In this document: in pieces, positions 8,846-62,900 of the stretch
How the letters are laid out: every line of letters begins with the position of its first letter
Numbering within the stretch: position 1 is the first letter of the stretch
Source: Carcharhinus longimanus
Lineage: Eukaryota
DNA: 64,000 bases
Direction of reading: 5' to 3'
Assembly (NCBI GenBank): GCA_030264375.1
Contig: JASCQW010000043.1
Location: 40,296,284-40,360,283 of the forward strand
The notes under the pieces: model-generated
Told to the model about the DNA's origin: nothing
The model's database searches: none
What the model saw: the letters and a program-made list of their open reading frames with translations, nothing else
Program-made: the position numbers and the translations under genes

Positions 8846-9035
8846 GCCAGCACAGTGGCACAGTAGTTAGCGCTGCTGCCTCACAGCGCCAGGGACCTGG
8901 GTTGGGTTCCGACCTTGGGTGACTATCTGTGTGGAGTTTGCACGTTCCCTTCGTGCCTGCTGGGTTTTCTCCCACCAGGTTAGGGAAATTGGCCATGCTA
9001 AATTGCCCCTAGTGTCCAATGTTGCGTTAGCTAGG
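8846..9035 (+). mobile_element. HE1-type SINE
   Basis: CAGCACAGTGGCACAGTAGTTAGCGCTGCTGCCTCACAGCGCCAGGGACC head. Confidence 0.8.
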
Positions 9036-22437: not shown

Positions 22438-25342
22438 AGAACTTCCATCCTTTTTCATCACATAGAGAGTTAAGGCCTCCACCAAAAGTGCTAAAACTTG
22501 TTTCAATAAACTTCTCTCATTTATTTCCATCTGACAAAGTACAATGAGGGATTTTGTTGACTGGCAGTTCAGTTTGGTGTTTGACTTTAAATATATTCAC
22601 AAAGAATTTATTCATACCAAGTTCTAAATAAACAGATTCAGGAGCTGGAATGTCTTTCTGTAATATAACAGATGCTACAAAACATTACCATGCAGTGTTA
22701 TTAAACTAGTCCATAAGCATATCTTTGACTTGCTTTGAAAAGTTGCTACAAAAGTTGACAAAAATCTTAAAACCTAGAATGTGTTGTACTAATAAGCAGC
22801 TTTTTAGAGTAACTCTTTCAAAGCACGTGAAACATTTATTTGTAGAATATTTTATTTTTTGCAACAGTGTTACCAAAGTAATGTACTTGCCTTACAAATC
22901 TATTTGTTTGAAATATAGGGTGATTATATGCTTTTGTGAACATACATGACCAAACAAAAGTGACGAACCAATGATATTTTTAAGATCAAAATGGCTGTTG
23001 AAGCTTTATCTCATCTGTTACACTATTCTGTTAATTGAAGATAAATTGCTTTCAATTTCCCAAAGGGTTAATCTCTTGATACAGCTCCATCATTACATAT
23101 GACAGTAAATATATTCATTAGTGTTGAAAGTCAATCTTGCAAAGAGCCACAGCTTTGCAAGATCACCTCAATCATAACGGTTTTAAAGCTGAATTAAATT
23201 CAAACTCTGATAAATGCTCTAATATAGATTATCATGGCTTAAACCATTGACCCTAAGAAACCAAAGATCCTTGTAGCATTCAAAAGCATCAATTGCCCAA
23301 GTGCATCAGAGAAATGCATGTGCCTGGAGGATTGGTTGAAGGTCAACTGTGGGTTTACAGTGTAACCCATACATAAAATGTGATTACCAGAATCTGTAAA
23401 TGTATCACATATGTAAACTGCACATACAATACTGTCATATTGTCTGTAGTGACAATTAAATGGGGATAATTCATGGTTTGACTTCATCTGAATCTGGTTT
23501 AATAGAGTTAAGCTTCACTCATGTTGGACGTTTTGCCGCAAGAAAAAATTTGGTCACTACTTGGTAACCAAATGGATAGGAAATAGCAATGTTGCAGTTT
23601 GGATATAGTTCAGATTCAAGACGAAGGTCATGTGCTCATCACTAATTTAAATGAAAAATGAAAAAAATGATATTTTGTTTGAATGAGAGATTGACGGAAA
23701 ACATTTCTTACTGAATGATATGTGTATGACAAGCACAACGGTTAATGTTTGTCCTAGAAATCTCCTTTTACCCCGATAAAAAGTCCTATTTTTCAAAATT
23801 AAATACATTATTTTTCAATGTGAAGTTTATTTTAAGTGGTGAAATGGAAGCACTTAGCAGGTTAGGAAATATCTCTGGTGAGAACTAAGGTTAACAGGTG
23901 GGTTTTTCATCCTATAGGAGGGTAATGAGAGTTAGGAAATTTCCTAGCTTGGCTTGCTCACCTCAGGAGAAAGTGCCAGCAAAGTTGGGATTTTCACTGC
24001 GGGGTTGGGATAAGGATGGTACTAACTGGAATCGGGCTCGTCATCATCAAAAGGAGTTCAGAGGCAGCCACAGGAGCTGACAAGTTGTTGCGTGTCAAGG
24101 CAAGCTACTGAAAAGATCCACCTGAATGCTCTGGGACTTTGTTATGCTATCATCACCATAGCTGGAACAAAGAATAGCTCTCTAGTCCTCACCCCTCAAG
24201 TGCCCTCACCCCAACACACTCCCCATGCCCCATCCATGCCAACTCTTGCCACGTGTTCCACACTCATCCCGATGGCATCTTTATCTTGTGTTGATAGGCA
24301 CTGAGCAATTGACAGAATTGATCACAGAACAACAGCAGTCAAACAAGCAGTGTTTCCCCTGGGGTACAGCTCTTTCAACAATCTAATGGACGTCTGCATT
24401 CTCAGCGAGGAACGCATAACAAGATTTAGCTCAAACCTATATACACATTTTAAAAAGTAGCTAATATTTCACTCATGACTTTTTAGGTAAAATCTTTTTT
24501 TGATCTACTGTGCCCAATTTATCTATTCTAATTGAAAGTCCTCTTTAAAAACCAGTAAAATTGCAAGTATGCTTTAAAAATGTAATCAGGTATTACAAAT
24601 TCAATAGAAAAGTATATGACATACCCTTTTGTCAATGATATACACACTGTGAACTTTTCAAAAATTTTTAATGTAAGTGTATGCTGAATAAAAGTGTCCT
24701 GCACACAAAGTTACTGTACAATGCTTCACAAAATTGAGGCTTCAGATAAACTATGATCTAAAACTTGGACCATTTGTAATAATTTGAATAAAATATTGCC
24801 AGTCTATGTAATTTATACAAAGTTAACTACTTTTAAAAACCAGTGATGCTGACAGAAATGGTTTAACTCTGTGATTAAATAACCCTGATATAAGGAAATA
24901 CACACAAGATTTGTGACCTAGACAAACAGCATGGTACAATGTCATGTGCCTTAAAATTATATTGCACAAATATAACTTTTTATTTTGTTATCTGGATAAT
25001 TACAATATTTTGTGTGTTTTATGTATTTTAGTAATGATTATGTATAACCAACTAGAAAGATGAATGCATTTCATTCAATAGGGAATCAGTTCTAAAAATC
25101 AATTAGTTTGTGTTAATTGGCTACTTGATCTACTAACCTAAATACATGTGCAATATCCATGCTTTCTGCGTAATACTAACATGGCAGTAGAAATTTTGCT
25201 TACTGTGCAAAATAAAAGAATAGTTAAAAAGTAGTAACAAGAGCAACTTATTGACGTTTAATTCAGAACAGCCAAACAGTGAGAAGCTGCAGGCTAAAAG
25301 ATTTCATGTTGAACTAAATGCACAGGATCATAGTTCAGATAA

Positions 25343-25780
25343 GAGGTCTTGTGGCACAGTGGGTAGCGTCCCTGCCTTTTGAGCCAGAAGCTCTGGATTC
25401 AAGCCCCATTCCAGGACTTGATGGCCAAGGAAAGAACATTCATAATGCAGCCAGACCTGTTTCGTATCAAACTTACAAAAGCCAATGGCAGGTGATAGGA
25501 ATGGGAGAAATGTGATGGAAAGTTATTGAAGCCTGACCATTACTATCCATAGCTCCACGCTACAACATGGAAGCAAAAGTGCCTGTTGCCTCAACAACAT
25601 GGACTCCTTGAGGGCCAGCTGGCTAAATAGACCGTGTGGATCAGGTTGGTGCTAACAGTACATGATTCAATCCCCATTCCAGCTGGAGTGGGTTCAGAAT
25701 CTGCTCCTTGCCCTAGCCATGGTAAATATTAGGGCAATATGGATCGAACCTGCCTTTGAGTAGAGGATGCAAGAAGATGA
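25343..25780 (+). mobile_element. One or two older tRNA-derived SINEs
   Basis: A box TGGCACAGTGG and B-box-like GATTCAAGCC. A second head-like segment starts near 25612. Confidence 0.5.
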
Positions 25781-28362: not shown

Positions 28363-28684
28363 GCGGCAGGGTGGCATAGCAGCACCTGCTGCCTCATGGT
28401 GCCAGGGACCTGAGTTCAATTCCCACCTTGGTTCACTTTCTGTGTGGAGTTTGCACATTCTCCCCGTGTCTGCGTGGGTTTCCTCTGGGTGATCCAGTTT
28501 CTTCCCATATTCCAATGATGTGCAGGTTAGATGAATTGGCCATGCCAAATTGCCCCTTAGTGTCAGGGGAGCTAGCTAGGGTAAATGCATGAGGTTAACG
28601 GGAATGGGGCCTGGGTGGGACTGTGGTCGGTGAGACTCGATAGGCCAAATGGCCACCTCCTGCACTGTAGGATTCTATGACTCT
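28363..28684 (+). mobile_element. Near full-length HE1-type SINE
   Basis: tRNA-like head, GTGTGGAGTTTGCACATTCTCCCCGTGTCTGCGTGGG body and ATTCTATGA tail. Confidence 0.85.
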
Positions 28685-29399
28685 ACATGCAGCAATGTTC
28701 TAAATATGTAGTTTGCTTCAAAAGCACTTGCTAACAATAGCTCCAGATAACGTTAAAGTGCTGGGCACAACTTCAATGAATAATTCCTTCTCTTTATTAT
28801 GTGCACCAATTGTCAAAACAGTGAATTAAAAAATAATTTACATAAAGCAGTTATTCTATCTCCCTTGCTATTCGTCTCTAATCCAGGTGGCCACAATTTA
28901 CACATTTTTGCCAGACACGCACATATCCAACAAGTGCTACTGGGTAGCAATCAGGAGCTGAAACCTGAAACTCTGACTGACTTTTGTTCTTTCTAATCTG
29001 AGACCAAGAGCAATTTTAGTAACCTCCATGCTGCCAACATCAGCCAACTCAGCACAGACCACCTTGCAAACCTGAGGCCTTTGTGATCTAAACAGTACAA
29101 CTACTTCCTCAATGAACTGGCTGAGCTATCAAGGGCCGTGATAATTATTCCATTCAAAACGGAGGAAGGCTGATGGATCAGAATTCTTTTTGTGTCCATC
29201 ATTGTTCATATATTCAGTGCCAAAAAGAATCTATACACGCTTGATGCCTTATCACTTCCTTGGGTCACCCAACCAATGTTTTGTTAAACGAAATGACTTA
29301 TTATCCAGTAGCTAATCAGGACCCAGATCTATGATTTGTTTTAAACAAATTATTTTTTCTATGATTTGTCTTCACAAAACTAAACTGGAATGTTTATAA

Positions 29400-29835
29400 A
29401 GAAATAAAAAACTTGCACTAATATAGCCCACTTTACACCCTCAGGATATCTCAAAACATTCACATTTAATGAATTACTTCTAAACTATAGTTGCTTTTGT
29501 TATTAGGCAAACAAGGCAACCATACAGATAGGTCTGACAAACAGCAATGAGATTATTTACCAGTTAACCTGTTTAGGTGGTGTTGAGGAAAGTTGGTTAG
29601 AATACTGGGAAAATTCGCTGTGATTATTCAAAGGAGTGCTGCAGGACGTTTACATCAAAAACAGCCAGACAGAACTTTGGTTTAACAACTATAATAGCAG
29701 ATGGCATCTCCAACAGTGCAGCATTCTTAAAGTGCTGCACTGAGGCATCATCCTACATTCAAATCCTGGATGGGGTTTAAAAACACAAACTTCTGACTTG
29801 AAAAACAAAGTGCCAGCACTGAGCCAAGCTGACAC
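29400..29835 (-). mobile_element. Deu-domain SINE (SacSINE1/AmnSINE1-related), decayed
   Basis: The reverse complement contains a tRNA-like head and GCTGCACTGTTGGAGATGCCATC...GTTAAACC, the Deu core. Confidence 0.6.
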
Positions 29836-29871
29836 AAAACCAAAACATTATACACTATGAAATGTTAACAG

Positions 29872-30120
29872 CAGGCACTGTACTGTAGAAATGCCGCTTT
29901 TCAGATGAGATGTTAAACTCTGGCCCCATCTCCCTGCTTGTGTGGATCTAAAAGGTCCCATGGCACTATCTTGAAGGTGAGCAGGAGAGTTATCCTCAGT
30001 GTTCAGGCCAATATTTACTCATCAAAAACAGATTTATCTGGTCATTATCAGCCATTGCTGTAATGTGCTTTGAGATGTTTGGTGGTCATGAAAAGTGCTT
30101 TATGAATGCAAATCCTTCTC
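29872..30120 (+). mobile_element. Deu-domain SINE, 5' truncated
   Basis: TGCCGCTTTTCAGATGAGATGTTAAAC...AGGTCCCATGGCACTATCTTGAAG...GGCCAATATTTA matches the Deu core as recalled. Confidence 0.7.
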
Positions 30121-33100
30121 TCTTTAGGGTATGCTTTGTAATTTTAAAACTTTAGAATCATGCCCATAAAAATAAATTCCTCATGTCAGTCATTTTCTAA
30201 TTTGAATCTTCAGTAATACACAGTCTCCTGCATCTTTTTGCAATTGGTTACTGACCTAATGGAACATGGGTGATAGATTCCAGTTAGCTATCATCCAACT
30301 ATGGCATGAATAGGACAAGGAGGCCTAAATGGAGGGAGAAAAAGCCATCAAACTTACACAATGAAAAACAGTAATTCACCTCAAGAGGCTGGGTTGAGTG
30401 TTTAAAAGTCACAGAATTTGCTATCCCTTGACACAAAGGACTCCAATATGTCCAATATTTGAAGAATAAAGTTAAAAATACTTGATTCAACATACATTTC
30501 AAATTAATTTTTATACATGTTTTCATAGCTTAAAAAATGAATAATTCTCTTCAATTGTAAATATCGAAGATAACAAAAATGAAGGCTATAGATATATCTT
30601 TATTGCTAAATTCTGTTTCTCTTATCAGCACTGCATTGCTCAAGAATAAAATAGAAGCTATAGAACCATCATAGTATGTATCTAAAATGTAGCAGTGAAG
30701 TTTTCCAAGTGCAATCAGGGAACTAAAATATCATTGTATAAACGATTACAGCTTGTCAGACAATAGTAAGACCACATTAAGCATAACATATTTACAACTG
30801 AAGTAAACACTCATCAAAATAAGAGTCAAATTAGGTAGTAATTATGTGTTTCAGCTCAAATTTAAATTCTGCAGGTTAGTCATGCACAATAAAATTAATC
30901 ATTGGAAAAAAGCTAATCATAAAAAAGCCATTCAGTTCCATCAGGTATAACTTTTGCGAAGAAATTCTGTGTAAGATTTAACCGCCTACATTAACATTTT
31001 GTATAAATTTTTCATCAGTGTTAATGATTTTTGGTATCTTATACCAACAGGAGACATATAGTATTTCAAACATTAAAATATGATTTCAACTGACAACTGC
31101 ATACTTACAAATACCCCATCATAATATAATCTCAGTAAACTGTAATCATCTGAGAAAGTTTTCAGAATTGTATCACAGAATGAACACAATACTATTATAA
31201 CATATAAACTTAAAATATCTTTTGAAATATTTTGTACAACATGAAGCTTAACAAATTTAAAGCACTACCTGTTTTTCTTGGTTGCATAGTACAACATAAT
31301 ATTTAAAAACAAATGTTAGAAAAATTTACAAATGTATAGCATATTCTCTGAATAAGACATTTCTGATTTGTCTAGATCTTCTTGCATTTGTTCTACATGC
31401 TTCCTGGGGTGCTACTTATAATTTTGACTTTAAGAAGCACTAAAACCCTAATTTAGTCTCTATGCACCATATAATAGAGCAGTTTAATTTATCTGTCTAT
31501 TAATGCAAAATAGTGTATTTACCATGTAGACAGAATGAAATGATATGTAATTCTACTTCCCGTCATTTCCTTTACATTTAAATAGATAGTGTGGCTCAAA
31601 TGTAATGTTGTACAAATGTATCTGTCATAAATCTTTAATGGAAGTATATCTGGCAATCACACTAGCATTCTTCTTCACTCAGCTCTATCTTGATTTTAAA
31701 ACCAATAGTCTAGTTTTAAATGTTTTTAATACTTATTAGAAAATAACATGAAATTCAAATGTTTAAATATATATTGCATAATAATTTTGCAATTGGGGAT
31801 CTTGTGCTATGTGTGTCCAAAAGGCTCACATATATCAATTCAGTTTTTCACAACAATTAAAAATAATACGGCATAAGAAAATTCTGTAACCATTAGCTTA
31901 GTAATTACGCATCAAGTTCAGAGAAATAGCTGCAGTAAACTGAAGGAGGTACAGTATAGATTTGATTTTAACAGTTTTAGATTACAACCTATGTAGGCCA
32001 ACCAGCAGGGATACTGTCTCCTCACATGATAATCAATTGAAACTGGAGTGTGCCTTGCCATGCCCCAGCAATCGGCTCCGGTCTCTGGCCAATCAGGATG
32101 ACACGTGAACCGCCTAATCCTTCCTTTGTACGATACATAAGACTCTGTTGTCACTGCTGGTTTTTCATGAATTGCCTGTGAAAGCCTGTCTGATTTCTTG
32201 AAGATGACAGGCCACACTGAATGTTTGCCATTCATTGTGCAAATGCCGGTGTGACAACAAGATTAAAGTACTAATGAATATATCTCTAATCACATGTCCA
32301 CATGCTATGAATTTGTCTTGAACAAGAACAGATTATGGAGTAATCCTACAGAAACAATAAGCAATTATTAACAGTATTATATCATGTTTGATTCAACAAA
32401 AAAATTGATAGTCTAGATATAACTCTTGCCTCAAAACCTAAATAGTTCATGCTAAATGCTCCTGAGATTATGCTGTGCAGCAATATGCATCTTTTTTTTA
32501 AATTATGATTATGTGTCCACAGTTAACTATTAATTCAAAACTTGAACTAGAACATTCGGAAATATTGTCATCTTTTGATATTATTTTCTAAACACTTAAA
32601 GTTCTTGAACAATGCAATAAACATCTGAACAATAATTATATGTCAGCTTTGAAATAGTGCCCTACAAGCCTTGACACTAAGCTACAATGTCACATCATGC
32701 CATCAATAGCATCCTCTTATCTAGTCATCTTTTCTGGGTATCCAGTGACACATTTTGTACTGTCCAAACATCAAAACTGTACTCAAGGGTACTACCATTA
32801 TTCTACACACTGCAACATTTTTAAAAATGCACGCAACCCCATTTCTTTCACTAATTTCATTGTAGATTTTGATCAAAATAACTGCTTATTTTAATATAAC
32901 TATTTTAAAATACCTGGTAATGCTGCATTCCCATAGAATAAAACATCCTTACATATATAAAATTCAAGTCCACATAACTGCATCATGCTAATATCAAAAA
33001 GGTTGTGGGCGTATGTACATTGCCTTTATATGGTTTAGCGAATGCCTTTTTCAATTAACTAAATTCCAACAAAACATAAGGTTTGTATGCTGGATACAGA

Positions 33101-36100
33101 TGCTAAATGTGTTTTATTTTGGCCTTGAATGAAACAAAGGAGTTTTTTTTACGAGTCAAAACAGCCGTGGGGAAGTTGTTTTCTCCCATATGTTTTTTTT
33201 ATGTAACCACCTGAACTCCACTTTATTATAAACCCAGAAGTAAGTTTAATGTACAAGTACAAGTTGGAGCAGGGAAGAATGGGGTGTGTGGTTAGGAAGG
33301 GGAGAGGCAAAAGTTATCGATTTGCTGCAAACTAAATAGGCAAAGAGAGGCCACATCATACAAAAGAGCATCAAAAAGTTGTTTATCTAAGAAGCATCTG
33401 AAAGTAACTAGTAAAATATGGAAATACAAAGTAAGAGCTACAAAAAAATTGGGTTGCAAGAATGTACACTGATGATCTTGAAGGTCTATCACTAAACCAA
33501 CACAAATTGCGTTTACTATAGTCCACATTAACATCTTCCCTGTGCAACACTTCCATACCCACTGCCAGCAAAAACAAACTGTAGTAGTCATTTCCCAGGC
33601 TGGCACGCCAGGGCTCCTGCCTACCTATGTACTCACACAGAGACACCAGGAAATAGAAGTAACCTCAAAACCAAAATCAGCGCCAAGGAATCGTTCTTCA
33701 AGTTTGTGATGACAAAATGCTCATTCCACCTAGTCAAAATTCCCAAAGGTTGGCTTTGCGCCAATGCTCTGACCTCTGACAAGTCTGATCCTTTAATCAT
33801 TTCGATTTCACCCACTTTTTTTTAGAAGATTTTTCTAATATATGTGTTCCACTCAAATAGTACAATGATTTGCGGTGGGCGTTTCAAAACTACGTGGAAG
33901 CTCACGCATACTACACGGACAATTACCTTTGAAATAAAGGGTCAGAGGGTTTGGAAAAAAAAGATACCTTTAAAGGTGTAGTTTACGGTAGGCAATATGC
34001 TAATGTCAGACTCCCCAGAAGAAGAAATAGCGTGTACAAAGGGTCAATATCTTGTTCATTTGTGTTAACGTCAAATAAGGAACACGGAGCACACGTTGCA
34101 AGGTCAAAACATTTGGGTGTAATCAACAACACTACACATCAGACATCCCAAAGTAACAGGTTTCATCTTACAAACAACGCGACCTCAACAACTCCTAAAC
34201 GCAGAACAAAAAACCCGACTTTTGACAGCTGGTCGCAGTAGTTTGCAATGCCTCTATTGAGGTAGTGGAGTGAAGTTTACAACCAACTCGCAAGTGGCAA
34301 TCATAAAGTACTGCAGAAAGTCAAATGCAACATTAAATATTTGGACGCGAAATTGAGCCTAATTGATGCCGGAATTTCACTCACTTTCAAATTTTCCTCT
34401 GAAAGAGGTCTTTTCCCAAACGGAAGGTCTGCATATGATTGATCCTTGGCTACATTTATTATCTCCCTGCTCTGGAGCTGATTAGCGTGCTGCACTCAAG
34501 CGAGAGGAGGTCTAAACTTATTTGATCGACCACACTCGGTGGACTCCGCTGGTTAAAAATCTGAACTCTGATCTATTCACTGCTGATATTTGTTTTTAAA
34601 AAATCACTAGGTATCACTTGAAACAAACTCTGCGGCAGGGAAGAAGAGGCGAAACGTCCAGTCAGTGTTCTCCCACAATCCTAAACCAGTTTTATGGATT
34701 ATCAGTTTCATTCTTGAAAGGGGGCGGGATCAAATCTTCAGCATTTTCCTAAAACAAATACCGTGCCACCAGACAAGACAGAAAACATATTAACTCCTTT
34801 AGAACGCATGATTAACCAATACTGATTCTCATCGCAGGATCAACAAGCTGACTACATTCCTTTTCACCTTGATATAACATACCAACTTTAATTTACTCTG
34901 TATAATAGGTATTCATCGCCCCCATGTCTATATTGTGAGAGATTTGTCATATTTTGTTTTGATAATATAATGTTGAGCATGACCTTGTCTGACAGCACGT
35001 TGGCACTATTTCTGTAACTTGGCGTACAATGTAATGTATTACAGCCATTAGTCTGATTCTGTAAAAAAAATCTACAGGGACCGAAGAACACGGAGAATAA
35101 CTGGCCCCTTTCTACAACGTGATTCCCCTCGCCTTGTTACGCTTGTAAAAATGGCCTTTTCTTACTAAACTATGGGGAAACGTTGCCAAATTCATTGCAA
35201 TCTCGAGTTTTACCCCATTCAAATGAATGTAGGTTACTGTTCTAATGTTGTCATGGACCAAAACCAAGTCACTGTTAAACCACAGCTTCATTGCACTCGC
35301 AATTAATTGCCTGAAATTTTGAGTGAACACTTAGCATTGTACAGAAAGACTAGGAAACACGTTGAGATGATCTGGCAAAACAGACTTAATTTAAAAGTAT
35401 GCATCGATAAACCAAATGAATGGAAAGGTAACAAAGTTTAAAAAATAAACTTAGATCGGGATGAAACCTGAAATTAAGGGATAGATGTGTGGGTCAAATA
35501 AGAATGAAATTAGCGGTAGCTTGAAAAAAGAGTTACAGAATGAAAGTAGGGTTGTCCATGATGATGAGTTAGATGTAGATGCACTGAGAAACACCGAGGC
35601 TTTGCATGGTTCAGTATATTGCGCAGCAGTGTGACTTGGAAAGGATCTCCACACATTCCACTGTCTAAGCGTTTCCTACTGCGCCAGGACTCCGGCCCCC
35701 TCTTACAACAATCCTGTTATATCAAACAGCTACTTGGAAATTAAAACAAGCAGCTTCTCCCAGGCGGCGTGGAATTCAAATTCTCTGGACAGCATCAACA
35801 CAGGAAGTGCAAATCACTACAGATAAAGATTGGTCGTAATGGCAAAGTTGAGGAAATCGCAAATAAACAACCTCTGCCACAGATCCAACATAATTCAAGT
35901 AACATGACTCTCCCCGCCTAAGATGAAATGCAGAATGGAAGTGACTCTTTGAGTGCATGGAAAAGTATGTACAGCATCGTATGTTCACTTTCAGAGTGAA
36001 CTGCCAACGACCCATCACTACAAACTATTAAATATAAAACTATAACAATCAGTAAAGCCAGATATGGTGTAAATTACGCTGTCATTGCAACTGCATTAGT

Positions 36101-36508
36101 CAGTAACGTGTAACTGTAAGCAGCAATGCTTGATATATTCAATGATCAAATGTACTGTATCAGAGCTTCTCTACAATATTACTTCACACAGAATTAAATC
36201 ATTTCTAATAAATTATATTTACTGGCGCTCTGATTGCCATAGAGAGGAATGCCACCCGAAAATGTTAATCGCATCGTCTGACAATACTACTGAAAGCACC
36301 AAATGTAAAAGCTGTAAATTAAAAGTGAGAAAGAGCCATTGTCCATTCTGGCTTGGCATCTGTAGATACAGTATATTGCACACTAACTCCATTTTAGTCA
36401 TTGTGTGATTTCTGTAGTTTCACACGGACCGCACATGTCAAAACACAATCTAGAAACAAGAGAAAAGTCTACGCACAGCAGAATGGGGAGCAAAAGAAAA
36501 TCACTTAC

Positions 36509-37175
36509 CGCACAAACCTCGACGATGCTGCTTCCCCGACCTCAATTTTCCCCCTCTTGAAGACGGATTAAAGTTACTTTAAAAGCTCCAACTTCTTTTG
36601 ACACCTTGGATTAAAAGCAGAACGAGAGAGAATCGACCATGTTACAAAACACATCAGCCGGAGCAAAGCTCGTCATCATTCACCACCACAACAACACGTT
36701 TACGGGCCATGTGAACATTAAAGATTAAACAAAACCACGGCTGAAACAATGACAGAGAGAGTATTAACATTTAATTCCCTCCTCGGATTTGCACAGGGTA
36801 AGTTTTAAAGGGGAGGGGGGGAGGAAGCCAATTTAAAACACAGCAACATGCACAGGCCGTAATTTGCTTGCCATATAGCTTGAAGCATTAAACAATTACT
36901 GATGTAAGTCCAGTCATTAAAAACTGCGCTACAATGTTGGTTTTTTTTGAGAGCAAACAAGTTTATATTTTTTTTACTGACCAGTGAGCTGAAGACAAAT
37001 CGACTGTGAGGGCTGAGATTTGTATACATTAATTGTTTTTTTCTTTAAAAAGACAATACTTTAAAAAGCTGACATATAGAGAGCTATAGATAGAGCCATT
37101 TCTGAGAGAGGGAGAGAGAGAGAAAGCCCTGCTCGCTTTAGTCAGTCTCCCTGTCTGTGTGTATCTGCTTCTATA
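36509..37175 (-). other. 5'UTR first exon(s) from the CpG-island promoter
   Basis: Strong donor TGCG|GTAAGT (intron starts 36508) just downstream of the island on the minus strand. A second possible donor is CTG|GTCAGT at 36981. A CT-rich tract lies near the 5' end. Whether this is one exon or two is unresolved. Confidence 0.55.
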
Positions 37176-38120
37176 TTTAGCGGAGGAGCAGCTCCAGCGA
37201 GAGGGGGCGGGGCCGGCGCTGTGCTCGTTCGCGTGGTGAACGCAACGTCACAAACGCGCGCCCGCGCCCGCGGGGAGGGGGCGGGAGCGAGCGGAGCGAT
37301 GGCGTGGGCGAGCGTGGGCCCGCCTGCCTGCGCATGGATACCCCTCCGCTAACGCCGTTGTTTGCAGCGTTTCCGCCCTCATCGCCCACCTCAGAGGTAA
37401 CCATCCGCTGCCAAAAAATGAGTTCCAGGGCAGGTTTCATGTTACTGGTGTGGGGGCGGCTTGGGAGTGGCCAGGTAGCATTTATGCCCCGTTATGGAAT
37501 TGCTGCTATTATTAATGATGCTCACATATATTAAAACAAAACAACTGGCAGACTTTGGTTGTTGTTGTCGAGCTTTGAAATAATAAACTCGAGCTTCGCT
37601 TTTAATAGGATAGTGGGTTATTTGGGGATAAGAATAAAATGTCAGCCAGCCCTCTCCCTCCAGGACAACGCCGAACCCATTAAGAGGCAGGGTGAACTTT
37701 TAGGAAAGTGCCTTTTTTTGACGGGTAAACAGGATTGCCGCCGCCCGATCGGGCAACAACCACCCCTTAATCCCGGCCCTCTCCACCCACCCTGCTTCAG
37801 TGCCTGGATTCGCTCCCCCACCCCATTGACGTCAGTGCCCAGGCTGTCAGTGCGCGCGGAGCTGTCAATCAAAGCCAAGTTGAGCGGCACGCGGAGCTGG
37901 AGCTGCACCGCCACTGCCGCAGATCCAGCACTCTGTCACAGCAGCAGCATGTCACAGGCGATCAATCACTACACACTGTTACTTTTAATATCAGTGCAGC
38001 ACAGATTAAATTTAAATGCAAGCAGAGTCTCTCGCTGTCTCCCCCCACCCCGCCCAAGTTCACCAAAAGAACCTGCCAAATGACGTACAGGGGGAGGTAG
38101 GCGTAATAAGTTACTGTCAA
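37150..38120. promoter_or_regulatory. CpG-island promoter of the MEF2-family gene
   Basis: Strong local CpG/GC enrichment in an AT-rich, CpG-poor window. MEF2 site CTATATTTAG 37171-37180, GC box GGGGCGGGGC 37204-37213, half-CRE 37245-37250, NRF1-like CCTGCCTGCGCA 37323-37334, CRE TGACGTCA 37827-37834, PBX-MEIS decamer 37862-37871. Confidence 0.8.
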
Positions 38121-39429
38121 AAAATAACCATTTTATTTATTTTAGTCCTTAGCAACTTTAGATGAGTCAGAGAACATCTCACCAATAGTTATCAATGGAG
38201 CAATTCAAAATGAAATTCGGATTTAACACTTGACAGGGTCCTGGGAATCTTCTCCACTTACTATTTTAATCAGCCTTTGATCTGCATACTAAAGTACAAT
38301 ATTGTTTTTGCTAGGAACATGGTATGCCCACTGACTTCCATTATCCAACATTACAATCATTTAGTTTCGTGCAGTTTTCGGAAGACCTATAGTCACAAGA
38401 GCCCCACATCAATCACATTATCTGATAGTCTATGATAAATTCAGTGCTGTAGTGTAAAACACACTCGCCGTTTCTTTCAACCTCCCTCAACTCAACATGA
38501 TTTACTCGTTTTGTTTTATGTGAACTGCATTCCCACAATACGCAAGATGCAGTGATCGCCCACTTGCTTGTATGTGTTAGCGAGCACGTCAGGTTTATAA
38601 ATAGGGGTAAACAGAATAGTACGATAATGGCAAGAAAGCAGATAAAGTCTTCCTCTTAAAGCTCCACAAACCTAATTTAAAACAATAATAGTCACGATCA
38701 AATAACACATTTTTAAATGTCATGCAGTATTTAGTTGTATATTAAATATAAATGTGGAGAGAAAGGAAACGATTTGGCCTACAGCCGTTCGGAGTCAGTA
38801 AACATGTCTTATCACTTAGAAGGTGCAATGTCAGACGAGTAAATCAAAGATACATTTTACATTTCGGGCCTAAGCTTGGAATTAACTTGCAGGACTGTTA
38901 ATTGCGCCATAGCATTTGACATGAATACAGAAGCAATAAATAATACTGAAGTTGTAATCCTGATATAAGGTTTATCAGTTGTATAACCTTCGGGGTGGGG
39001 GGGGGGTGTTTGGGGGAAGAAGTCTACCACACATCCTGACAAACAGGATCTCATTTCTCTACAGTTCTTTGTAAATCAGATGGCCAAACTAGGGAAGCTG
39101 GAAACACATGGAAGGACAGATGACACACATATTGACACTGGCTGCTGTGAACATAAAATCAGACCTAGAGAAATCATATTGAGGAAAAAAATGGAAATGC
39201 AACATGAAACACTGCATTCTTGAAGCATAACCAAGTACAGGAGGGTCAATGGTCAGAGGGAAAAAATAAACTTCACCAAAACTGAAGATTGTTCTCCAGT
39301 TTGACCTAACATTCTAAGTCACATTTTATAATATTTTTGGAGCTGTTTCACCACACCAAGCACTATTGTGGTGTAGTGATTGAATAAGTAAAATCTAGCT
39401 AAAGATTTAGAGAACTTCACTAGAATTTT

Positions 39430-39625
39430 TGTCAATGTGTTTCAGAGGGTTTTGGATGCTCCGTTGTTAAATACATTTAAGGCAGACAGCTTTTTTGTCT
39501 TTCAGGTATTCAAAGGATACAGGGAGACGGCAGAAAAGTAGTCTTGAAACCCAAGATCAGACACAATCATTTTGAATGGTGGAGCAGGCTCCACAGGCCA
39601 TGTGGTCTACTTCTGATTCTATGTC
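39430..39625 (+). mobile_element. CR1 3' tail
   Basis: AATACATTTAAGGCAGA...GATCAG...TGAATGGTGGAGCAGGCTC...TGGTCTACTTCTG. Confidence 0.7.
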
Positions 39626-41679
39626 TTGTGTATCCCTTTTCCATGACCATTGAACCCAATAGCTTGGCAGCTAAGATACAATTTATGGTGATGGAGTCTA
39701 ATCCAAAATTTATAAAATGGATTTTAAACATATTTTGCAAATCACACTTTGCAACTCTAATCATTTTTGCAAGGAAGCTAAAAGAGCAGACTCTCTGGAA
39801 CATGTTTGTACTCTGTTTTCTGATTCTGACATGCAAAGAAACACAAATAAAAAAGCCCTACATTTATAATGGTATTGTATAATCCTGTATAAAATATATG
39901 TGTGTGTGTGGGAGGTCAAATGAGTTTGCAAACCTGTCTTTGGCATTGCTTATTTCTACTTATGTTATTGCTATTATTAATTTTATTAGTCATAGCATTA
40001 TATAATGATTTGGCTACTTTGTAATCAAACTCAAAATCGCATGATAAATTCAGACCATCTCATAAAACTGTTTCAGAAGTGGCCTGCCCAAAGGGAACAC
40101 GTAGAAAATATCTCAAAGAATAATTAAATGCCAATTGAAATAATAAAACCTCGTCACATTTATGATTACCCTAAGGTACAATTTTTGTAAAAGATTAAAT
40201 ATGAAGCCAGAAATCAGTCTCAGATTTGTAACACCAGCTTATGATTTGAAGCATTTTAAGAGTTCATAGATTTGAACTCAGCTTATAGAAATCAGTGAGG
40301 TAGATTGGAATACTTTTCTCCTTCATGTGATTTCACAATCAAGTTGATTGGCAGAAAGGGGGAAAATCCAGTCTGATATAAGTTTGTTCAATTTAAAGAA
40401 GATTGGGTCTCAAGCTCATGTGCACCATCCAGTCATTACAATATACCCCACACAATTATTGACCTTGCAAGCAATGTTAACGTCCATGTAAGATGCAAGT
40501 TTTTGCATTCTATTCTCAATGACGGTTAAATTCCAATGACAGAATTGTAATGTTCCTTCCACATCTGTCCTAAATTTCATCTATAAAGTAGTTGTTAGTC
40601 GATGTTGCACTGTAATTCAATGAAGTATCAATTTCTTATTTGCAGTGAGTCTACAGAGCCTGGTGCTGCTGAAGTCTACATTAGTAGCATGACCTAGAGG
40701 ACAGCTGTAAATTATGTATGTCAAAGTCAAGATTATGTCAACTGGTTTTTGGAATTTGGACTATATCTGATTGATTTAAACAAAATCACTGGTGATATCT
40801 TAACTGTTTCCATTTAATGAAATTAATCTTTGATACTAATAAATGAAAAGGGAATTTGAGAAAAACAGCAAAACACAAGTTTTGAATGTACTGCAATGGC
40901 ATCTACATATGATAACCAGCTGTTGGACTTACTCAGATCACAGATTAATATCACTATCTAGGCATATTGGCTTGGTGCATCTGTTAGAACTGATTTAACT
41001 ATGAAAATGAAAGTTTATATTTACAGTAATTATATTCAATATAAATATGTGATATCAAATGCTTGTTTGTGACTTCAAAGCTGGCTATACATAACACTTG
41101 TCTTATTTTAGGAACAGGTTAACAAAGTTGAAGGTCCGTGGCAGCAGTATAAAAGAGTTATGGTTTTATAAAGCATTTAAACTCTTTTTATTGAGTAAAT
41201 ACTAAAACTAATTCCACCTATAGTTTCACTGAGTAAGCTGATAACTACAAAAAGATTTACCTAGATGCTTCAAAAGGAAGCATGATCGATAATAACTAGT
41301 ACAGCATACTTGACTCTTAAAATACAAGTATAAAAAAAAGATTGTTTTTACTGGAAGTCAAATTTAAACATATTGTCACTTAATTAAAAACATAAATATT
41401 ATCAGTTTTTTCTTAAACATAGTTCACTTGTTTAACATAGAAGCATTTTATTTGCAAATTCTCCTTTGCTCACCATGCACAATAAAACCCTCAAACTTTT
41501 AAGTATTTGTACTTTGCCATAGCCACTTACACCATATTACTTTAAAAAAACACTACTTAAGAATATTTCACTTATTATATAGGCTATAACTGTTTTCTTT
41601 GCTTTTAGGTCATTTCTACACAATGGAGTCTAAATGTGGTAATTTTGATGTTTTGTCATTTTTTGGTCCAAAAACTCAC

Positions 41680-41810
41680 CAGTGTTCTCTTTCCTTCTTT
41701 CTATGCTCTGCAGCACCTGCTGCAGGCTCGGATGATCAAACACTGCAGGTAAAAAAGGAATCCTGAAGAAAAAGCCAGACCAGCTGGCTTTGAAGAGAAA
41801 CCCCCCCTCT
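41680..41810 (-). other. mef2c: Non-coding first exon of a MEF2-family gene, Mef2c skeletal-muscle exon-1 type
   Basis: Minus strand reads GGGGGGTTTCTCTTCAAAGCCAGCTGGTCTGGCTTTTTCTTCAGGATTCCTTTTTTACCTGCAGTGTTTG...CAGCAGGTGCTG...CACTG|GTGAGT. This is near-identical to the 5' end of human MEF2C muscle-type transcripts as I recall it. Canonical donor with the intron starting at 41679. The TSS is approximate and the paralogue identity is not proven. Confidence 0.65.
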
Positions 41811-41899
41811 TCGGGATGAGTTTGCTTCGGACTGTTTCTACACTGAAGACAGAGTCTTTTTCCCCTTTCGATGTTGACCTATAGTTGCATGATGCTTTG

Positions 41900-41970
41900 C
41901 ACAAGTGGCTGGTTGCCCTGCATCCACCTGCTTCTGTCACTCTGGGGTAAATTTAGCCCTGGAAGGTATC
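41900..41970 (-). promoter_or_regulatory. Myogenic promoter/enhancer core: MEF2-like site plus E-box
   Basis: Minus strand ACCTTCCAGGGCTAAATTTACCCCAGAGTGACAGAAGCAGGTGG. MEF2-like CTAAATTTAC at 41947-41956 and E-box CAGGTG at 41925-41930, in the order and with the flanks I recall for the mouse Mef2c skeletal-muscle enhancer. Confidence 0.75.
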
Positions 41971-44479
41971 ACTAACAGGCAGACCTTTGTCAGTTCTGGC
42001 AAGAGAAATAGGAGTACTGCCCAAGTAAGCATGAACAGGGTTCAGATGGAAAAATGAAATCAGGAGTCTTGTCCAAAAATCATTNNNNNNNNNNNNNNNN
42101 NNNNNNNNNNNNNNNNNNNNNNNNNNNNNNNNNNNNNNNNNNNNNNNNNNNNNNNNNNNNNNNNNNNNNNNNNNNNNNNNNNNNAATCAGGAGTCTTGTC
42201 CAAAAATCATTTTTTTGCCAATTAAATTACTTTCATATGCTAGAAAGTAATGTTTTACTTCTAACTGAACATTATTCTTACGGCAGTACACTATATTTAG
42301 TAGCTAATACATTGCAACTTGTAGGTTGACATTGCTTCCTAAGTTAGATTAGTTGCACAAGGAAGTTTTTCTCTGTCACAGTTTTTCCATTTTTAAAAAA
42401 CATGGAAAGTTTTGTCTTCAGAGTATTAATTGTTAAACTGTTGTTGGGAACAAGTTGAAGTTCATACTGTAATCTTCTATCACCAGCAGGTAAAGAGTTA
42501 AAATATTAATGTGAACCAAGCAGAAAATAATATACCAAATTGATTGTAAGTATATTTCATAATGTTTCAATATTTGAACTGTACAGTTTATGACGTTTGT
42601 ATTTTGTAAAAAGGTAGATTAAGGAGTAACCACTCAATAGTGATGCAAATATATTACAGCTGTGAAACTTGAATAAAACCTGAGTTACATTATTTACGAT
42701 ACCAATCAACAAGCCATGCCAAATCTTCTACTATAAATTCTAAAGAAAAAATGTTTGGTTTATGAAAGAGACTAATGTCAAAGAAGAAAAAGAAAAGATG
42801 TGGTTTAACATTTTCCCTTTTGTTTAAGTTGTCCTAAACGCAGTAATGTTTCTTGTTTTGTATTTCCACAACAGGAAGAAAATGTTTCTACGATACTATT
42901 ACACTTAATGCCATAATAATGTTTAACAATAAAGCATGTATCATTTATGAATAGTAACAATAAGGCTACCTGCAAGGTGCAAAATAACAATAGATAATAC
43001 AATGAATGGTGTTATGAATTATCACCTAGTGCTTTTAGCTCTCAAACTGGAAAACACTAAAGCAAACTTTGAACCAGATTACTCACATGTCTCTGTTTGT
43101 AAATTTGTCTACTTTTGAAGGCACTGTAACACCAGTGCAATTTCAGAGTTGATCCATACAGTTGAGTGCACTATTATTAAACTGTGAGTCAAGAGCAGTT
43201 TTGTGTTCCATAGTCATGTTCACTAGGAACCAATCTATTATCGGACAAGCCCATTTCTACGTGACATTAAAATCAAACCCCATAATCTGTGGAACTGCAA
43301 TGATGATACTTTGGTCCAGAAGTAACAATTATACTGTAGCAAACCTCACATCAGTATAGCAATAACATCATTCTGGCAAGCACAGTGGCCATTACTAGCT
43401 CTGAGGTGCTCATGTCCAGCCAGTGCAAACACAATGATCTCATCAGTGCCTTAACCATTCAGAAGTTTTATTTTGAAGACTGTTACTCGTAACAATGTCT
43501 CCTTTGTAGTTTTAAATGTGTAAACAATATTGTTTTTGAAATTGCCAACTTCTTGCTTTGTGTTCAATCCTGGGTCACAAAAATCCAGACACCTACGTTA
43601 ATGCAGCCTTAAATGAGAATTATTTGACACGGTTAGTTACTTTTGTCAAAATATTATTTGGTAACAGATGCTGATAATATTGACTCTTAACATTTCACTG
43701 TCATTTATTTCAACATTGATTGAAATTAATATTAATTTTTGAATAATGATACAGATTTTGTGTTCAAATCATATACACTATATGGCAAGGTGAAACCAAA
43801 TTAAGATTTTTATGTAGACACAAGAATATTTTTACCAAGTTATGTTGCCAGAGCTAAGATATGGAAATTATTATTAGCATTCTGTCATTAGATTAACAAG
43901 TAACCCAAGCAATATTATTTGTGGCCTCAAAAGAACAAGCAATACAAGTGTTATGTTTCCCTTAATAAGTAATTCAAATGGATGGTATTCAAAACTGCCT
44001 GACTGAGCAAACATGCTTCATACGACACTCAAAAAAAAGTCCCACTTCATTAGAGTTTATGATCTTCTGTTCCAGCATGACCATATTAGCAAAAACAGTG
44101 AACAATGTATGTAAGACATTGACCTGTTAAGCCAAATTCAGCTGGCAAGATTTTACAAGCACATTGTCTTTCTGTTTAACCCAGAGCTGATATTCAACCA
44201 CCATGTGTTTGATGGAGGTGACAAGGGTCTCGCCTGCTGGCTGGAGAGCCAGTGAGACTCCTGCTTCACCTTATTTTGAGAAAACCCACTACATTAAATG
44301 TCACTCAGACAGTTACCTGGACATTGGCAGGCCATCTCCAGGATCAAGGACCATGGGGGCAAATTACCTGTTGAGGGATGCCAGCCAGTCAGCGGCCAGT
44401 AAATCTATTGAATGGCAGTGGTTGATATCAGTATGAAAGCTACCTAAGGCTTTGGATCTAAGGCTTACCTAAGGCTTTT

Positions 44480-44733
44480 ATTAATTACGTGGCGAAAAAC
44501 TGCAGCAGGCGACGGTGCAGAGGGACCTCGGGGTCCTTGTGCATGAGTCGCAAAANNNNNNNNNNNNNNNNNNNNNNNNNNNNNNNNNNNNNNNNNNNNN
44601 NNNNNNNNNNNNNNNNNNNNNNNNNNNNNNNNNNNNNNNNNNNNNNNNNNNNNNNGATCTTATTGAATGGCGGGGCAGGCTCGAAGGGCTATATGGCCTA
44701 CTCCTGCTCCTATTTCTTATGTTCTTATGTTCT
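44480..44733 (+). mobile_element. CR1 fragment spanning a gap
   Basis: QRDLGVLVHESQ before the gap and the tail TTCTTATGTTCTTATGTTCT after it. Confidence 0.8.
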
Positions 44734-54929: not shown

Positions 54930-57900
54930 ACCATGCAAGTGGATGGGAGGGGAACTTTCTACTGGCTGAAGTCATACCTAACACAAAAGGTAGATGGTTG
55001 TAGTTGTTGGAGCTAAAACAGTTCAGCTACAGGACACCACTGTATGAGTTCCCAAGGCAGTGTCCTAGGTTCAACCATCTTCAGATGCTTCATTTATGGT
55101 CTTCCCTCCATCATGTTGCACACTGTTCAGTTTAATTCACAACTCCTCAGATAATAAAGGAATCTGCAACTGCTTGATTAAGGCCTGGACAATATTCAGG
55201 CTGTGGCTGATCTGTAACATTCACACCACCCAAAAGCCAGGCAATGACCATCTTCAATAAGAGAGAACCTAACCATCTCCCAACAATATTTCCATCACTA
55301 AATCCCCCACCATCAACATCCTGGGAGCTATCAATGGCCAGAAACTCAACTGGACCAGCCATGGAATACTATGGCAAGTAATTCACCAATTATACTCTCC
55401 AAAGCCTGTCCACCATCTACAAGGCATAAGTCAGCATGTCATGAAATACTCCCACTTGCCTAGATGGGTGCATCTTTAACAACATTCATAGATCATAAAT
55501 CATAGATCATAGAACCCTATGGTGCAGAAAGAGGCCCTTTGGCCCATCGAGTCTGCACCGACCACAATCCCACCCAGGCCCTACTCCCATATCCCTACAT
55601 ATTTTACTTGCTAATCCCTCTAACCTAAGCATCTTAGGACACTAAGGGGCAATTTTAGCATGGCCAATCAACCTAACTCACCCATCTTTGGGCTGTGGGA
55701 GGAAACCAGAGCACCCAGAGGAAACCCACACAGACTCGAGGAGAATGTGCAAACTCCACACAGACAGTGACCCAAGCCAGGAATCAAACCCAGGATGCTG
55801 GAGCTGTGAAGCAGCAGTGCTAACCACTGTGCTACCGTGCCGCCCAAGGGCCTCTTAAGGATCAACAAGGTCACTTAGGTGCGGATCCACAAGAGATGGG
55901 TGAGATCCTAAATGAATATTTCTCATCGGTATTTACTGTTGAGTAAAGCATTGATATTAGGGAACTTGGGGAAATAAATGGTGATGTCTTGAGGAGTGTA
56001 CATATTAAAGAGAAGGAGGTGCTGGAAGTCTTAAAGCGCATCAAGGTAGATAAATTCCCGGGATCAGATGAAGTGTATCTGGGACATTGTAGGAGGCTAG
56101 GGAGGAAATTGCAGGTCCCTCTAGCTGAGATATTTGAATCATTGATAGTCACGGGTGAGGTGCCTGAAGATTGAAGAGTGGCAAATGTTATGCCTTTGTT
56201 TAAAAAGGGCTGTAGGGAAAAGCCTGGGAACTACAGGCCAGTGTAGTGGGTAAATTGTTGGAAGGTATTTTGAGAGATAGGACCTTCAGGCATTTAGAGA
56301 TGCAAGTACTGATTTGGGACAGTCAGCATGGAAAATCATGTCTCACAAATTTGATTGAGTTTTTTGAAGGGGTAACAAAGAAGGTAGATGAGGGCAGTGC
56401 AGTTGNNNNNNNNNNNNNNNNNNNNNNNNNNNNNNNNNNNNNNNNNNNNNNNNNNNNNNNNNNNNNNNNNNNNNNNNNNNNNNNNNNNNNNNNNNNNNNN
56501 NNNNNNNNNNNNNNNNNNNNNNNNNNNNNNNNNNNNNNNNNNNNNNNNNNNNNNNNNNNNNNNNNNNNNNNNNNNNNNNNNNNNNNNNNNNNNNNNNNNN
56601 NNNNNNNNNNNNNNNNNNNNNNNNNNNNNNNNNNNNNNNNNNNNNNNNNNNNNNNNNNNNNNNNNNNNNNNNNNNNNNNNNNNNNNNNNNNNNNNNNNNN
56701 NNNNNNNNNNNNNNNNNNNNNNNNNNNNNNNNNNNNNNNNNNNNNNNNNNNNNNNNNNNNNNNNNNNNNNNNNNNNNNNNNNNNNNNNNNNNNNNNNNNN
56801 NNNNNNNNNNNNNNNNNNNNNNNNNNNNNNNNNNNNNNNNNNNNNNNNNNNNNNNNNNNNNNNNNNNNNNNNNNNNNNNNNNNNNNNNNNNNNNNNNNNN
56901 NNNNNNNNNNNNNNNNNNNNNNNNNNNNNNNNNNNNNNNNNNNNNNNNNNNNNNNNNNNNNNNNNNNNNNNNNNNNNNNNNNNNNNNNNNNNNNNNNNNN
57001 NNNNNNNNNNNNNNNNNNNNNNNNNNNNNNNNNNNNNNNNNNNNNNNNNNNNNNNNNNNNNNNNNNNNNNNNNNNNNNNNNNNNNNNNNNNNNNNNNNNN
57101 NNNNNNNNNNNNNNNNNNNNNNNNNNNNNNNNNNNNNNNNNNNNNNNNNNNNNNNNNNNNNNNNNNNNNNNNNNNNNNNNNNNNNNNNNNNNNNNNNNNN
57201 NNNNNNNNNNNNNNNNNNNNNNNNNNNNNNNNNNNNNNNNNNNNNNNNNNNNNNNNNNNNNNNNNNNNNNNNNNNNNNNNNNNNNNNNNNNNNNNNNNNN
57301 NNNNNNNNNNNNNNNNNNNNNNNNNNNNNNNNNNATATCCCTACATATTATACCCACTAATCCCTTTATCCTACGCATCCCTGGACACTAAGGGACAATT
57401 TCTTAGCATGGCCAATCAACCTAACCTGCACATCTTTGGACTATGGGAGGAAACCAGAGTACCCGGAGGAAATCCATGCAGACACGAGGAGAATGTGCAA
57501 ACTCCACACAGACAGTCACCCTAGCCGGGAATCGAAACCAGGACCCTAGAGCTGTGAAGCAGCAGTGCTAACCACTGTGCTACTGTGCCGCCCATTCTAG
57601 AACAAAACGGGACAAAACAGCCTGCTTAATTGGCATCACATGGACAAACATCCATTCCCTCCACCACTGACACTCAGTAGCAGCTGTATGTAATATTTAC
57701 AAGATGTACTACAGAAATTCAGAAAGATCCTTCGATAGCACCTTCCAAATGTATGACCACTTCAATCTAGAAGGACACGGGCAACAGATACATGGAAACA
57801 CCACCACTTGCAAGTTCCTCTCCAAACCACTCATCATCCTGACTTGGAAATATATCACCATTCCTTCACAGTCGCTGGGTCAAAATCATGGAATTCCCTC

Positions 57901-59679: not shown

Positions 59680-59982
59680 GGGGTGGCATGATGACATAGT
59701 GGTTTGCACTGCTGCTTCACACCTCCAGGGACTTGGGTTTGATTCCCAGTTGGGGTCACTGTCTGTATGGAGTCTCCCAGTGTCTGCATAGGTTTTCTCT
59801 GGGTGCTCCGGTTTTCTCCCACAATCTGAAAGGCATGTTGGTTAGGTGCATTGGCCATGCTAAATTCTCGCTCAGTGTACCCAAACAGGCACCAGAGTGT
59901 GGCAACTAGGGGATTTTTACAGTAACTTCATTTCAGTGTTAATCTAAGCTGACCAGTGACACCAATAAATAAACATTAAACT
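59680..59982 (+). mobile_element. tRNA-derived SINE, same subfamily as 22158-22437
   Basis: Head GGGGTGGCATGATGACATAGTGGTTTGCACTGCTGC and the shared tail. Confidence 0.8.
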
Positions 59983-62900
59983 TCCAAGTTATAAAATGTG
60001 AAACATTATCCACTGGTTTTTCTCATTGACGTGGTTCAGCAAAATTGGTTCTTCGGCTTTGTTGGTCACCACAAGAATCTGTGACTGAGACTTTACAGCT
60101 ATGCCTCTGCTATAGATTGTGGCTCTCAACTAGTGCTGGTATCAAATCAGTGTTGCACAGTGATTGGCATCATGATCTACATACCCTACATACTTTCAGC
60201 GGACAGTAAGTGCATATTCACTAACCCTTTTACCAGTATGACGTTTGGCATGTGTTGCCTCAGAAATGAACATGTGTGCTCCAGTCACTATTTTGGAACA
60301 TTAAGGGGCTAATGTAGCACTCAACACATGGGTGTTATTGAGCCCAATTTCACCCCCAAAGTATAAGAATTGGGTCAGCTAGTAAAGAAACAAATGTGAT
60401 AGTCTCCTTGGGAGATTTATACACGAAAAACCAGGAAATAAGAGGTTGTAAAAAAGCTATTAAAAAGTAGAAAACAGAGACAACGCAAATAGATACAAAT
60501 ACAGCAACTACAATGAGAAGAATGTCTAATTTCCATATTAAAAAAAAGAGGAAAAAAAGAGTTTGCCCAGGCAAACAAAACAGAGAGAGGGATGCTTAAA
60601 AGGTAATAGGCAGGAAAACAAGAACAACATATTAACAACAATATTCTTGTCCATGAGTGCACTTTACCCAGTAATGCATTGACCTTGACCTAGTTTACTT
60701 TCTTGGAGAAGAATTTTAGTGCAGGAATAAGTTGAAAATAAGCAAATGTGATAATCTGTGATTGTTTTTACTGTTGGAGTTAGAAGGTAATTAATGTGTT
60801 TTTAAAAATTTCTTACTTGTGTGACTTACAAAATTCCACATATTTCTATTTCTGATACCGATCAAGTTGGACACACAGGAGTGATGTAGACCAACTGGAT
60901 CTGTTCCGAGCCTACATAATATTATTGCTGTCAATGTGATCTGTATTTGCAGATTGGCCATAAGCCACTTTTTTAATTTCATTCAATTACTATTGAAAAT
61001 TCACCATGTTCAGAAACTATTTAGTAGCGATTGAAACAAAAGAAAGCCCATGATCACTTAATAAACAGATTGATCAGACTGACAGTGCACCTACAAAGCA
61101 GATTTCATGGGGAATCCTTTTACATGGCATCATCCCAGGTTGTTCAGTTCAGGATTTAGCAGCTAAAAATGTGTTTATTAGAGCAATGTACATAAGGATA
61201 CTTAAAAACAATTGGATTTCCTTCCAATAAGATGGATCAATAACAAGTCATCAAAACTATCTATTAGATAAATACAACTGCAATAATCACCACAAATTAC
61301 ATTTTCAGCATAAGAAATTTGTGAATGTTTTGAAACACCTGAAAGGTCAATGGTGTATAACAAAAAAGGAGAAAAATTTTGAAAATCCAGATTAATCTTT
61401 GGTCTCCATACAGATGTATGCTCTCTTTGGTGCTGACATTGCAGAAAGTTCTCTGGGAACAAAATTTCACTTCAGTGTACTAGGACTGATGATTCTTCTT
61501 CTGAATATTAACTGGTATTTTTGGGGCTATTATTATCAGAGAAAAAAAACATTTATTGTAAAGAGGACCATAACAGCAAACAACAGGGTGCACTGAATGT
61601 AACCACCTTGAAGTAACTTAGGCACTTTGGAAGAAAAGTCCCCACAGACCCATTGAACAATGACAAATTGTGTAATTGTCCTAGATTTATTGTTGCATTC
61701 AACTTTGCCTTAACTCAGCCCTTTTGGGATCATCAACTGAGGTTTCCAAGGGGAATTTTCTTGATCCTTAACCCTACTTAACTCAACAAGTTTAAGCTGT
61801 AATGATTTTTTAAGCATGACGCAGTAAATTCCAGCATATTGTCTTCTGGTAGTTTTTTTTTCTCATCGCATCACTAATAGCAGTCTGTGTGAATTATAGA
61901 AAGCTTGGACTTACACATCTTGATGATAGATAATCAATAGTTGAATATCAGGGGACTCTCTTTTGGTCTATTAGCAACAATTGGCTTTGCCTCAGCAAAT
62001 TCAAGGTCATTCATAGAACCTCCTTGATATCACTTAGGCTTCAAAGAATGGGTTTTGCCTTAGCTAACACTTGCTGGAATTGAGTCTGGAGGCTTTTACA
62101 TGCACTTGCCGTGGGAATGTCCGGTAATGAAACCCTTGTGGGACATCTTCTTTGCAGCTCGATTACATTTTTAATGATACCAAAGCCACAGAACACCTCT
62201 CATTTTTAAAGTGATAACTGTACATTGATTTTTTAAAAGTGACATTGCAGACTACAACAGAAATCACATGGCCACTACATACTGTGGAGTGCAAAATAGA
62301 TTTGCATGTTTATTTTAAGAAAATAAAAGATTTCTAACTTATATTTCCACTACTAAAACAACCAAAAATAGCAATCATACTTTTTGGAACAAAAAGTAAA
62401 AAGTGTAAAATCATGAAAGCAAATAGTTCTGTTTCACCTTGAAATTGCCAGTATGAGGAGATATACTGCTCATGCCATTGTGAAATCATGTGTTGATAAC
62501 TGATTTGAAATTTTCCTCTTGACTGATGTCAAAACTTGTTTGCAGCTGTACATATGATTTAATATCCTGCATGCAGCTCCCAAAGACATTCTAATTGGTT
62601 TCTTCTGGTGTAAAGTCACTGACTGCAACCATTTAACACACTGAGGCCGTGTCTCCAAGTCCACTGCATTTAATAAGGCACTGCAACAATTTCAGCTGTC
62701 TTCCATTTAGTCTTTTGCCATTTTCAATTATACCTTTCCACCCCACTATTTGTGTAATTTTCAAATCTGTCTGAGCTGACTTGTACTGCTGTTCACTACT
62801 GCACTGCATGACAGATTACCTGACAAGCCATATCTGTTCAGCCCAGAAATGTGCAATAACACAGGGTCATGACTCTATCACATGTTGTGTACTTTATTTC

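Follow-up and report, generated by a model that had tools for sequence, protein, structure and literature searches.

The 64,000 nucleotides of shark DNA analysed here (the window) raise the question of whether the skeletal-muscle promoter of Mef2c, a well-studied element of the mouse, is present in a cartilaginous fish, and if so, which of its parts have been kept. The first-pass annotation had proposed such a promoter together with a non-coding exon, naming a MEF2-like site, three E-boxes and a GTGAGT splice donor. Reading both strands and scanning them, we found every one of these motifs on the minus strand; their positions and those of the further features discussed below are collected in Table 1.

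Table 1. Features of the likely muscle promoter, of the likely CpG-island promoter downstream of it and of their surroundings (positions in the window).
Feature	Position	Strand	Remarks
Strict MEF2 decamer (upstream)	42291..42300	either	on the upstream side of an assembly gap, ~335 bp from the MEF2-like site
MEF2-like A/T decamer CTAAATTTAC	41947..41956	minus	non-consensus last base; 10/10 bases as in the mouse probe core
Spacer, 16 bp	41931..41946	minus	same length as in mouse; 12/16 identical, 11 in a row (by eye)
TGACA core in the spacer	41935-41939	minus	common to the mouse probe
Promoter E-box CAGGTG	41925..41930	minus	6/6 bases match the core of the mouse MyoD/E12 probe; conserved purine at -1
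Likely non-coding first exon, ~210 nt	41680..41893	minus	strong donor at the 3' end; 5' end tentative, from mouse numbering
Palindromic E-box CAGCTG	41781..41786	either	lies within the likely exon; the -1 base is a pyrimidine on either strand
Second exonic E-box CAGGTG	41714..41719	minus	purine at -1; within a short inverted repeat
Splice donor	41674..41682	minus	GT at 41679-41678, GTGAGT at 41679-41674; last exon base 41680
Sole CpG island of the window	37001..38250	minus	CpG o/e 0.57-0.96 vs 0.26 overall; CpG-rich zone ~33-39 kb
Strict MEF2 decamer (downstream)	37171..37180	minus	in the CpG island, closely preceded by a GC box and a CRE-like word; putative role

With this in mind, we asked how much the grouping of the motifs can say. 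Among the 59 CASSTG boxes of the window, a span of 291 bp holds three of them at two places, and at least one such three-box cluster appears in 67% of 200 composition-matched shuffles and in 80% of 5000 random placements. The other cluster, at 25489-25685, is likewise at the level of chance. Motif clustering was thus dropped as evidence, and the suggestion that the exonic E-boxes may be functional finds no support beyond their presence. A pyrimidine at -1, as found at the palindromic box, is a poor context for MRFs. A decamer followed by an E-box at a distance of exactly 16 bp is seen once, compared with 0.02 expected in the 64-kb window for a pattern that was defined post hoc, and the core element (decamer, spacer and promoter E-box) is absent from the self-repeats of the window. 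Since the motifs alone are at chance level, the weight of the evidence lies in sequence identity.

Table 3 of PMC4970297, crediting Wang et al. 2001, gives the mouse probes to which MEF2C, MyoD and E12 bind, at mm10 chr13:83,504,087-83,504,139. Compared by eye with these printed probes, the shark sequence shares 28 of 32 bases with mouse, made up of 10/10 in the decamer, 12/16 in the spacer and 6/6 in the E-box, and both the order of the two sites and the 16-bp distance between them are the same in shark and mouse. The binomial expectation for such a match is 1.6e-7 per window with both strands counted. Furthermore, the MEF2-site probe aligned with 19 of 20 bases at 41957-41938 (score 35), a score reached by none of 100 shuffled windows (mean 23.9, maximum 32). 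On this comparison the MEF2-like site, the spacer and the E-box are homologous to the skeletal-muscle control region of mouse Mef2c, as had been supposed. The accompanying statement that the sequences align almost base for base applies to part of the region: outside the core, the ungapped flanks agree with mouse at 4 of 10 (5') and 5 of 11 (3') bases, giving 37 of 53 in all, and as identity falls away there, the statement holds for the 32 bases of the core only.

Could such a match arise by chance, or from mammalian DNA contaminating the assembly? The first-pass annotation compared the stretch with many known elements, and the motif clusters are of the kind that chance produces, which lends the idea some substance. 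Nevertheless, the shuffled windows and the binomial expectation speak clearly against chance, while contamination would have to account for a core with 4 of its 32 bases unlike mouse and for flanks that differ more. The surrounding 6-kb stretch is moreover present in 21 runs from 10 studies and seven organisms among the runs listed, 11 runs containing half or more of its words, so that it is real DNA and no stray contig; the best-matching run may be the source. No RNA run is among those listed, which speaks neither for nor against transcription, and two runs with small shares were set aside. We thus regard both origins as extremely improbable.

Apart from the core, seven mouse probes and primers were compared with the window, none of which matched significantly. 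The five further Mef2c probes or primers taken from PMC4970297 had no significant match in the window, their scores being reached by 93 (heart-field GATA site), 5 (site C), 55 (site D), 97 (SOX site) and 87 (ETS site) of 100 shuffles. A Mef2c primer given in PMC5062961 and a primer from the mouse muscle control region, given in PMC3349424, had no matches in the window at three mismatches; part of the latter agrees by eye at 9/10 bases with 41994-41985, which is near chance. For the downstream Mef2c enhancers (heart-field, SOX10 and ETS/FOX), 0 of 6 probes or primers were significant in the window, some of these elements possibly lying beyond it or having diverged. Short mouse primers would not be expected to last for more than 400 million years, and their absence says little.

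No MEF2 coding exon was found in the window, where 14 peptide motifs gave three unrelated short matches and a degenerate MEF2 start pattern gave 2 matches compared with 1.38 expected. The 41 kb downstream of the core hold no coding exon; one of the 30 ORFs tested (240 in the window) matches Pfam, namely a reverse transcriptase, and neither Rfam families nor tRNAs were found in the window. As the window is without a MEF2 coding exon, the name of the gene rests on non-coding similarity; Mef2c, and not a paralogue, is a plausible assignment. For the element itself, and for its identity alone, we consider it very probable that it is the orthologous Mef2c muscle promoter.

The wider arrangement of the locus was then compared with that of the mouse. 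In a window of vertebrate-like CpG depletion (overall CpG o/e 0.26), the sole CpG island lies ~4.5 kb from the muscle-type exon and likely marks a second, downstream promoter and first exon of the same gene; a strong donor is found at 36508 on the minus strand (rank 14 of 3539 minus-strand GT sites). The muscle exon comes first, the CpG-island promoter follows downstream and the coding exon is far away, an order that fits the mouse. There, the coordinates given in the tabulated part of PMC4970297 put the muscle probes at 83.504 Mb and further regulatory sites at 83.523-83.525 Mb, i.e. ~19-21 kb apart, and the heart-field enhancer is placed at +16.3 to +22.5 kb in the section of PMC7987942 that describes it. 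Both elements thus lie upstream of a CpG-rich second promoter and far from coding exons, but the distance to this promoter is ~4.5 kb in the shark as opposed to ~20 kb in the mouse, the shark flanks have diverged and the primer from the same region is unmatched.

This unlike spacing to the CpG island, along with the unmatched Mef2c probes and a window in which no coding exon names the gene, would suit a different origin, in which the locus is that of a different paralogue, Mef2a-like or Mef2d, with a pre-duplication copy of the muscle promoter that mammals kept at Mef2c only. The strict MEF2 decamer beside a GC box in the CpG island would also suit it, given that mammalian MEF2A is self-regulated via MEF2 sites in its own promoter, according to the pertinent passage of PMC10017154. 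Yet a core that is 88% identical, down to the odd base and the spacing, would be more typical of orthologues, the mouse primers are too short to be expected to survive, and relaxed MEF2 decamers are common in the window (22 sites). Also, we know of no such muscle element at the mammalian Mef2 paralogues. We therefore hold a paralogous locus to be improbable. In mammalian MEF2A the MEF2 site reportedly lies over the transcription start site. A strict MEF2 site near the likely start is present in the shark CpG island too, a likeness that bears on the second promoter and not on the core.

If the gene is taken to be Mef2c, the stretch downstream of the core should begin its muscle transcript. The donor that closes this stretch ranks fourth among the 3539 minus-strand GT sites of the window when scored with a textbook matrix, and lies ~250 bp downstream of the core. 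From the donor and its position, it is plausible that the stretch is a transcribed, spliced exon, which may resemble mammalian Mef2c exon 1; its 5' end was placed by what we assume to be the corresponding mouse numbering (-64/-38). Near the likely start, the ATG-started frames on the minus strand comprise 14 codons (41923) and 3 codons (41890). The 14-codon frame would sit upstream of the likely start site. Two alternative 5' UTRs each are described for zebrafish mef2ca and mef2cb in the relevant text of PMC4064114.

The donor also bears on the alternative that the core is homologous but acts as an enhancer for the CpG-island promoter, or acts outside skeletal muscle, the donor then being unused. 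The CpG island is only 4.5 kb away, the local CpG o/e at the core is 0.2 and hence at background level, and in Xenopus Mef2c is a marker of tendon and of the connective tissue of muscle, as stated in PMC8802780. Such a role is in our view quite unlikely, as it would leave idle a donor that is one of the top four among 3539 sites and stands at first-exon distance from the core, and as the mouse counterpart is a promoter located in the first exon or next to it according to the descriptions of it in PMC4970297 and PMC4364460. The same description in PMC4364460 has the mouse element drive tight skeletal-muscle expression, '73k' being the name of the mouse line driven by the Mef2c muscle promoter, and the corresponding lines of PMC5638774 report that the element responds to MyoD.

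What reads the decamer is a separate matter. The consensus for MEF2 has A or G as its last base, as worded in the motif descriptions of PMC5852603 and PMC4064114, and the shark decamer fails it by ending in C, as does the mouse one. The claim that this non-consensus final C is shared with mouse is borne out by the complete identity of the decamer with the probe. The last base thus breaks the MEF2 consensus, yet all ten bases equal those of mouse, including the four exchangeable A/T positions, and 11 consecutive spacer bases have been kept too, which selection for binding by MEF2 alone would not fix. These observations fit a reading in which the promoter is the same orthologous one while the decamer is no working MEF2 site: a homeodomain, forkhead or core-promoter factor would read decamer and spacer, the E-box alone would confer MRF control, and there would be no loop. 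Dodou et al. 2003 are said to have found that the E-box is essential and that no direct MEF2 autoregulation occurs via the mouse enhancer, contrary to Wang et al. 2001. An essential E-box and absent direct autoregulation, as reportedly seen by Dodou et al. 2003, are what a decamer without MEF2 function would lead one to expect. Conversely, MEF2C is given as binding the probe in the consulted Table 3 of PMC4970297, with reference to Wang et al. 2001, and weak sites would be conserved exactly if low affinity itself were selected. Altogether, we consider it unlikely, although by no means far-fetched, that the decamer lacks a MEF2 function.

For the orthologous Mef2c muscle promoter with its non-coding first exon, we thus propose a mechanism in which the decamer does have such a function; this combined reading appears to us fairly probable. 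The E-box is likely a site for myogenic bHLH/E-protein dimers. In differentiating myoblasts, a dimer of MyoD or myogenin with an E-protein on this E-box would start transcription 30-40 bp further on, at ~41890, a start that we presume from the mouse numbering. The non-consensus decamer would be a weak MEF2 site, held mainly via contact with the neighbouring MRF, and would maintain expression rather than start it. The conserved spacer with its TGACA core may add a third input of TALE or T-box type; by consensus, we take this core to be a TALE/Meis-type half-site. Finally, splicing would join the short exon to the first coding exon beyond the window start, skipping the CpG-island promoter that lies between them. 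In the mouse Mef2c muscle control region, Tbx1 occupies a site that had been predicted, as reported in PMC3349424. A second TGACA core is found on the minus strand at ~41992-41988. The further claim, that the MRF-MEF2 positive loop on this gene is older than the split of sharks and bony fish, overreaches, as conservation of the sequence is no proof of an old loop.

The upstream side of the promoter is interrupted by a gap of 100 N, which is flanked by 27 identical bases (42058-42084 and 42185-42211). Given these shared bases, the two sides of the gap probably overlap without having been merged, and the promoter sequence upstream may run on uninterrupted. With such an overlap, the distance from the MEF2-like site to the strict MEF2 site upstream of it would be ~210 bp. 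Only two of the 22 relaxed MEF2 decamers in the window are strict CTA(W)4TAG sites. The two are identical to each other, and one lies beside each likely promoter, an observation made post hoc.

Comparison with known systems helps to delimit what has been conserved. With the mouse Mef2c skeletal-muscle promoter/enhancer (Wang et al. 2001; Dodou et al. 2003; Mef2c-73k-Cre), the likeness consists of the decamer, the E-box, the 16-bp spacing and 12 of 16 spacer bases. In the modules of the myogenin promoter and the MCK enhancer, MEF2-type and MRF sites are adjacent as they are here; a TALE-type site stands beside the MEF2 and MRF sites of the myogenin promoter, as set out in the consulted section of PMC5852603, and possibly likewise in the shark core. 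Unlike these modules, the core shows homology to one specific element and not only shared motifs, and its MEF2 site is non-consensus. The core also resembles gnathostome conserved non-coding elements at developmental transcription factor genes such as GLI2, which are likewise short and of high identity between mammals and slowly evolving fish; here 32 bp were compared. Expression of the gene in the bamboo shark and the mouse is in keeping with this likeness: Mef2c goes up late in the fin buds of the former, as it does in the limb buds of the latter, according to the pertinent results in PMC7932699.

Our search, which had most subscription journals outside its reach, found no publication on a Mef2c-type muscle promoter in a cartilaginous fish. 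The match can probably be seen already in genome alignments and in automated annotation, and it likely represents the expected deep conservation of a well-studied element, with no new mechanism. New here are the conservation of the spacer itself, with its TGACA core, and the presence, only ~4.5 kb downstream, of a likely promoter in a CpG island that contains a strict MEF2 site. If the element is orthologous, the core of the Mef2c muscle promoter dates to the common ancestor of jawed vertebrates, as is expected for the gene of a developmental transcription factor. Read as a phylogenetic footprint, the comparison shows that every base of the non-consensus decamer is fixed, as are 11 spacer bases and the E-box, while the flanks are not. 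The footprint points to a candidate third site within the spacer and offers an exact means of re-examining MEF2 autoregulation via the decamer. The finding would matter much more if the gene were a paralogue: an MRF-driven Mef2 muscle promoter would then predate the vertebrate genome duplications, and mammals would have lost all copies but that of Mef2c.

Both likely promoters lie within the longest stretch of the window that is free of self-repeats (28685-44656, 16 kb). As evidence for promoters, this repeat-free zone was dropped (P = 0.125). Elsewhere, the window carries ~8 copies of a tRNA-type SINE (4153-4403, 5321-5528, 8850-9030, 22158-22447, 28363-28685, 55503-55846, 57335-57594 and 59681-59986) and decayed LINE fragments, among them 20201-20431 on the plus strand, with a Pfam RVT_1 match, and 55947-56171 on the plus strand, whose relatives carry RVT_1. 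The SINE copies and LINE fragments presumably resemble elasmobranch families.
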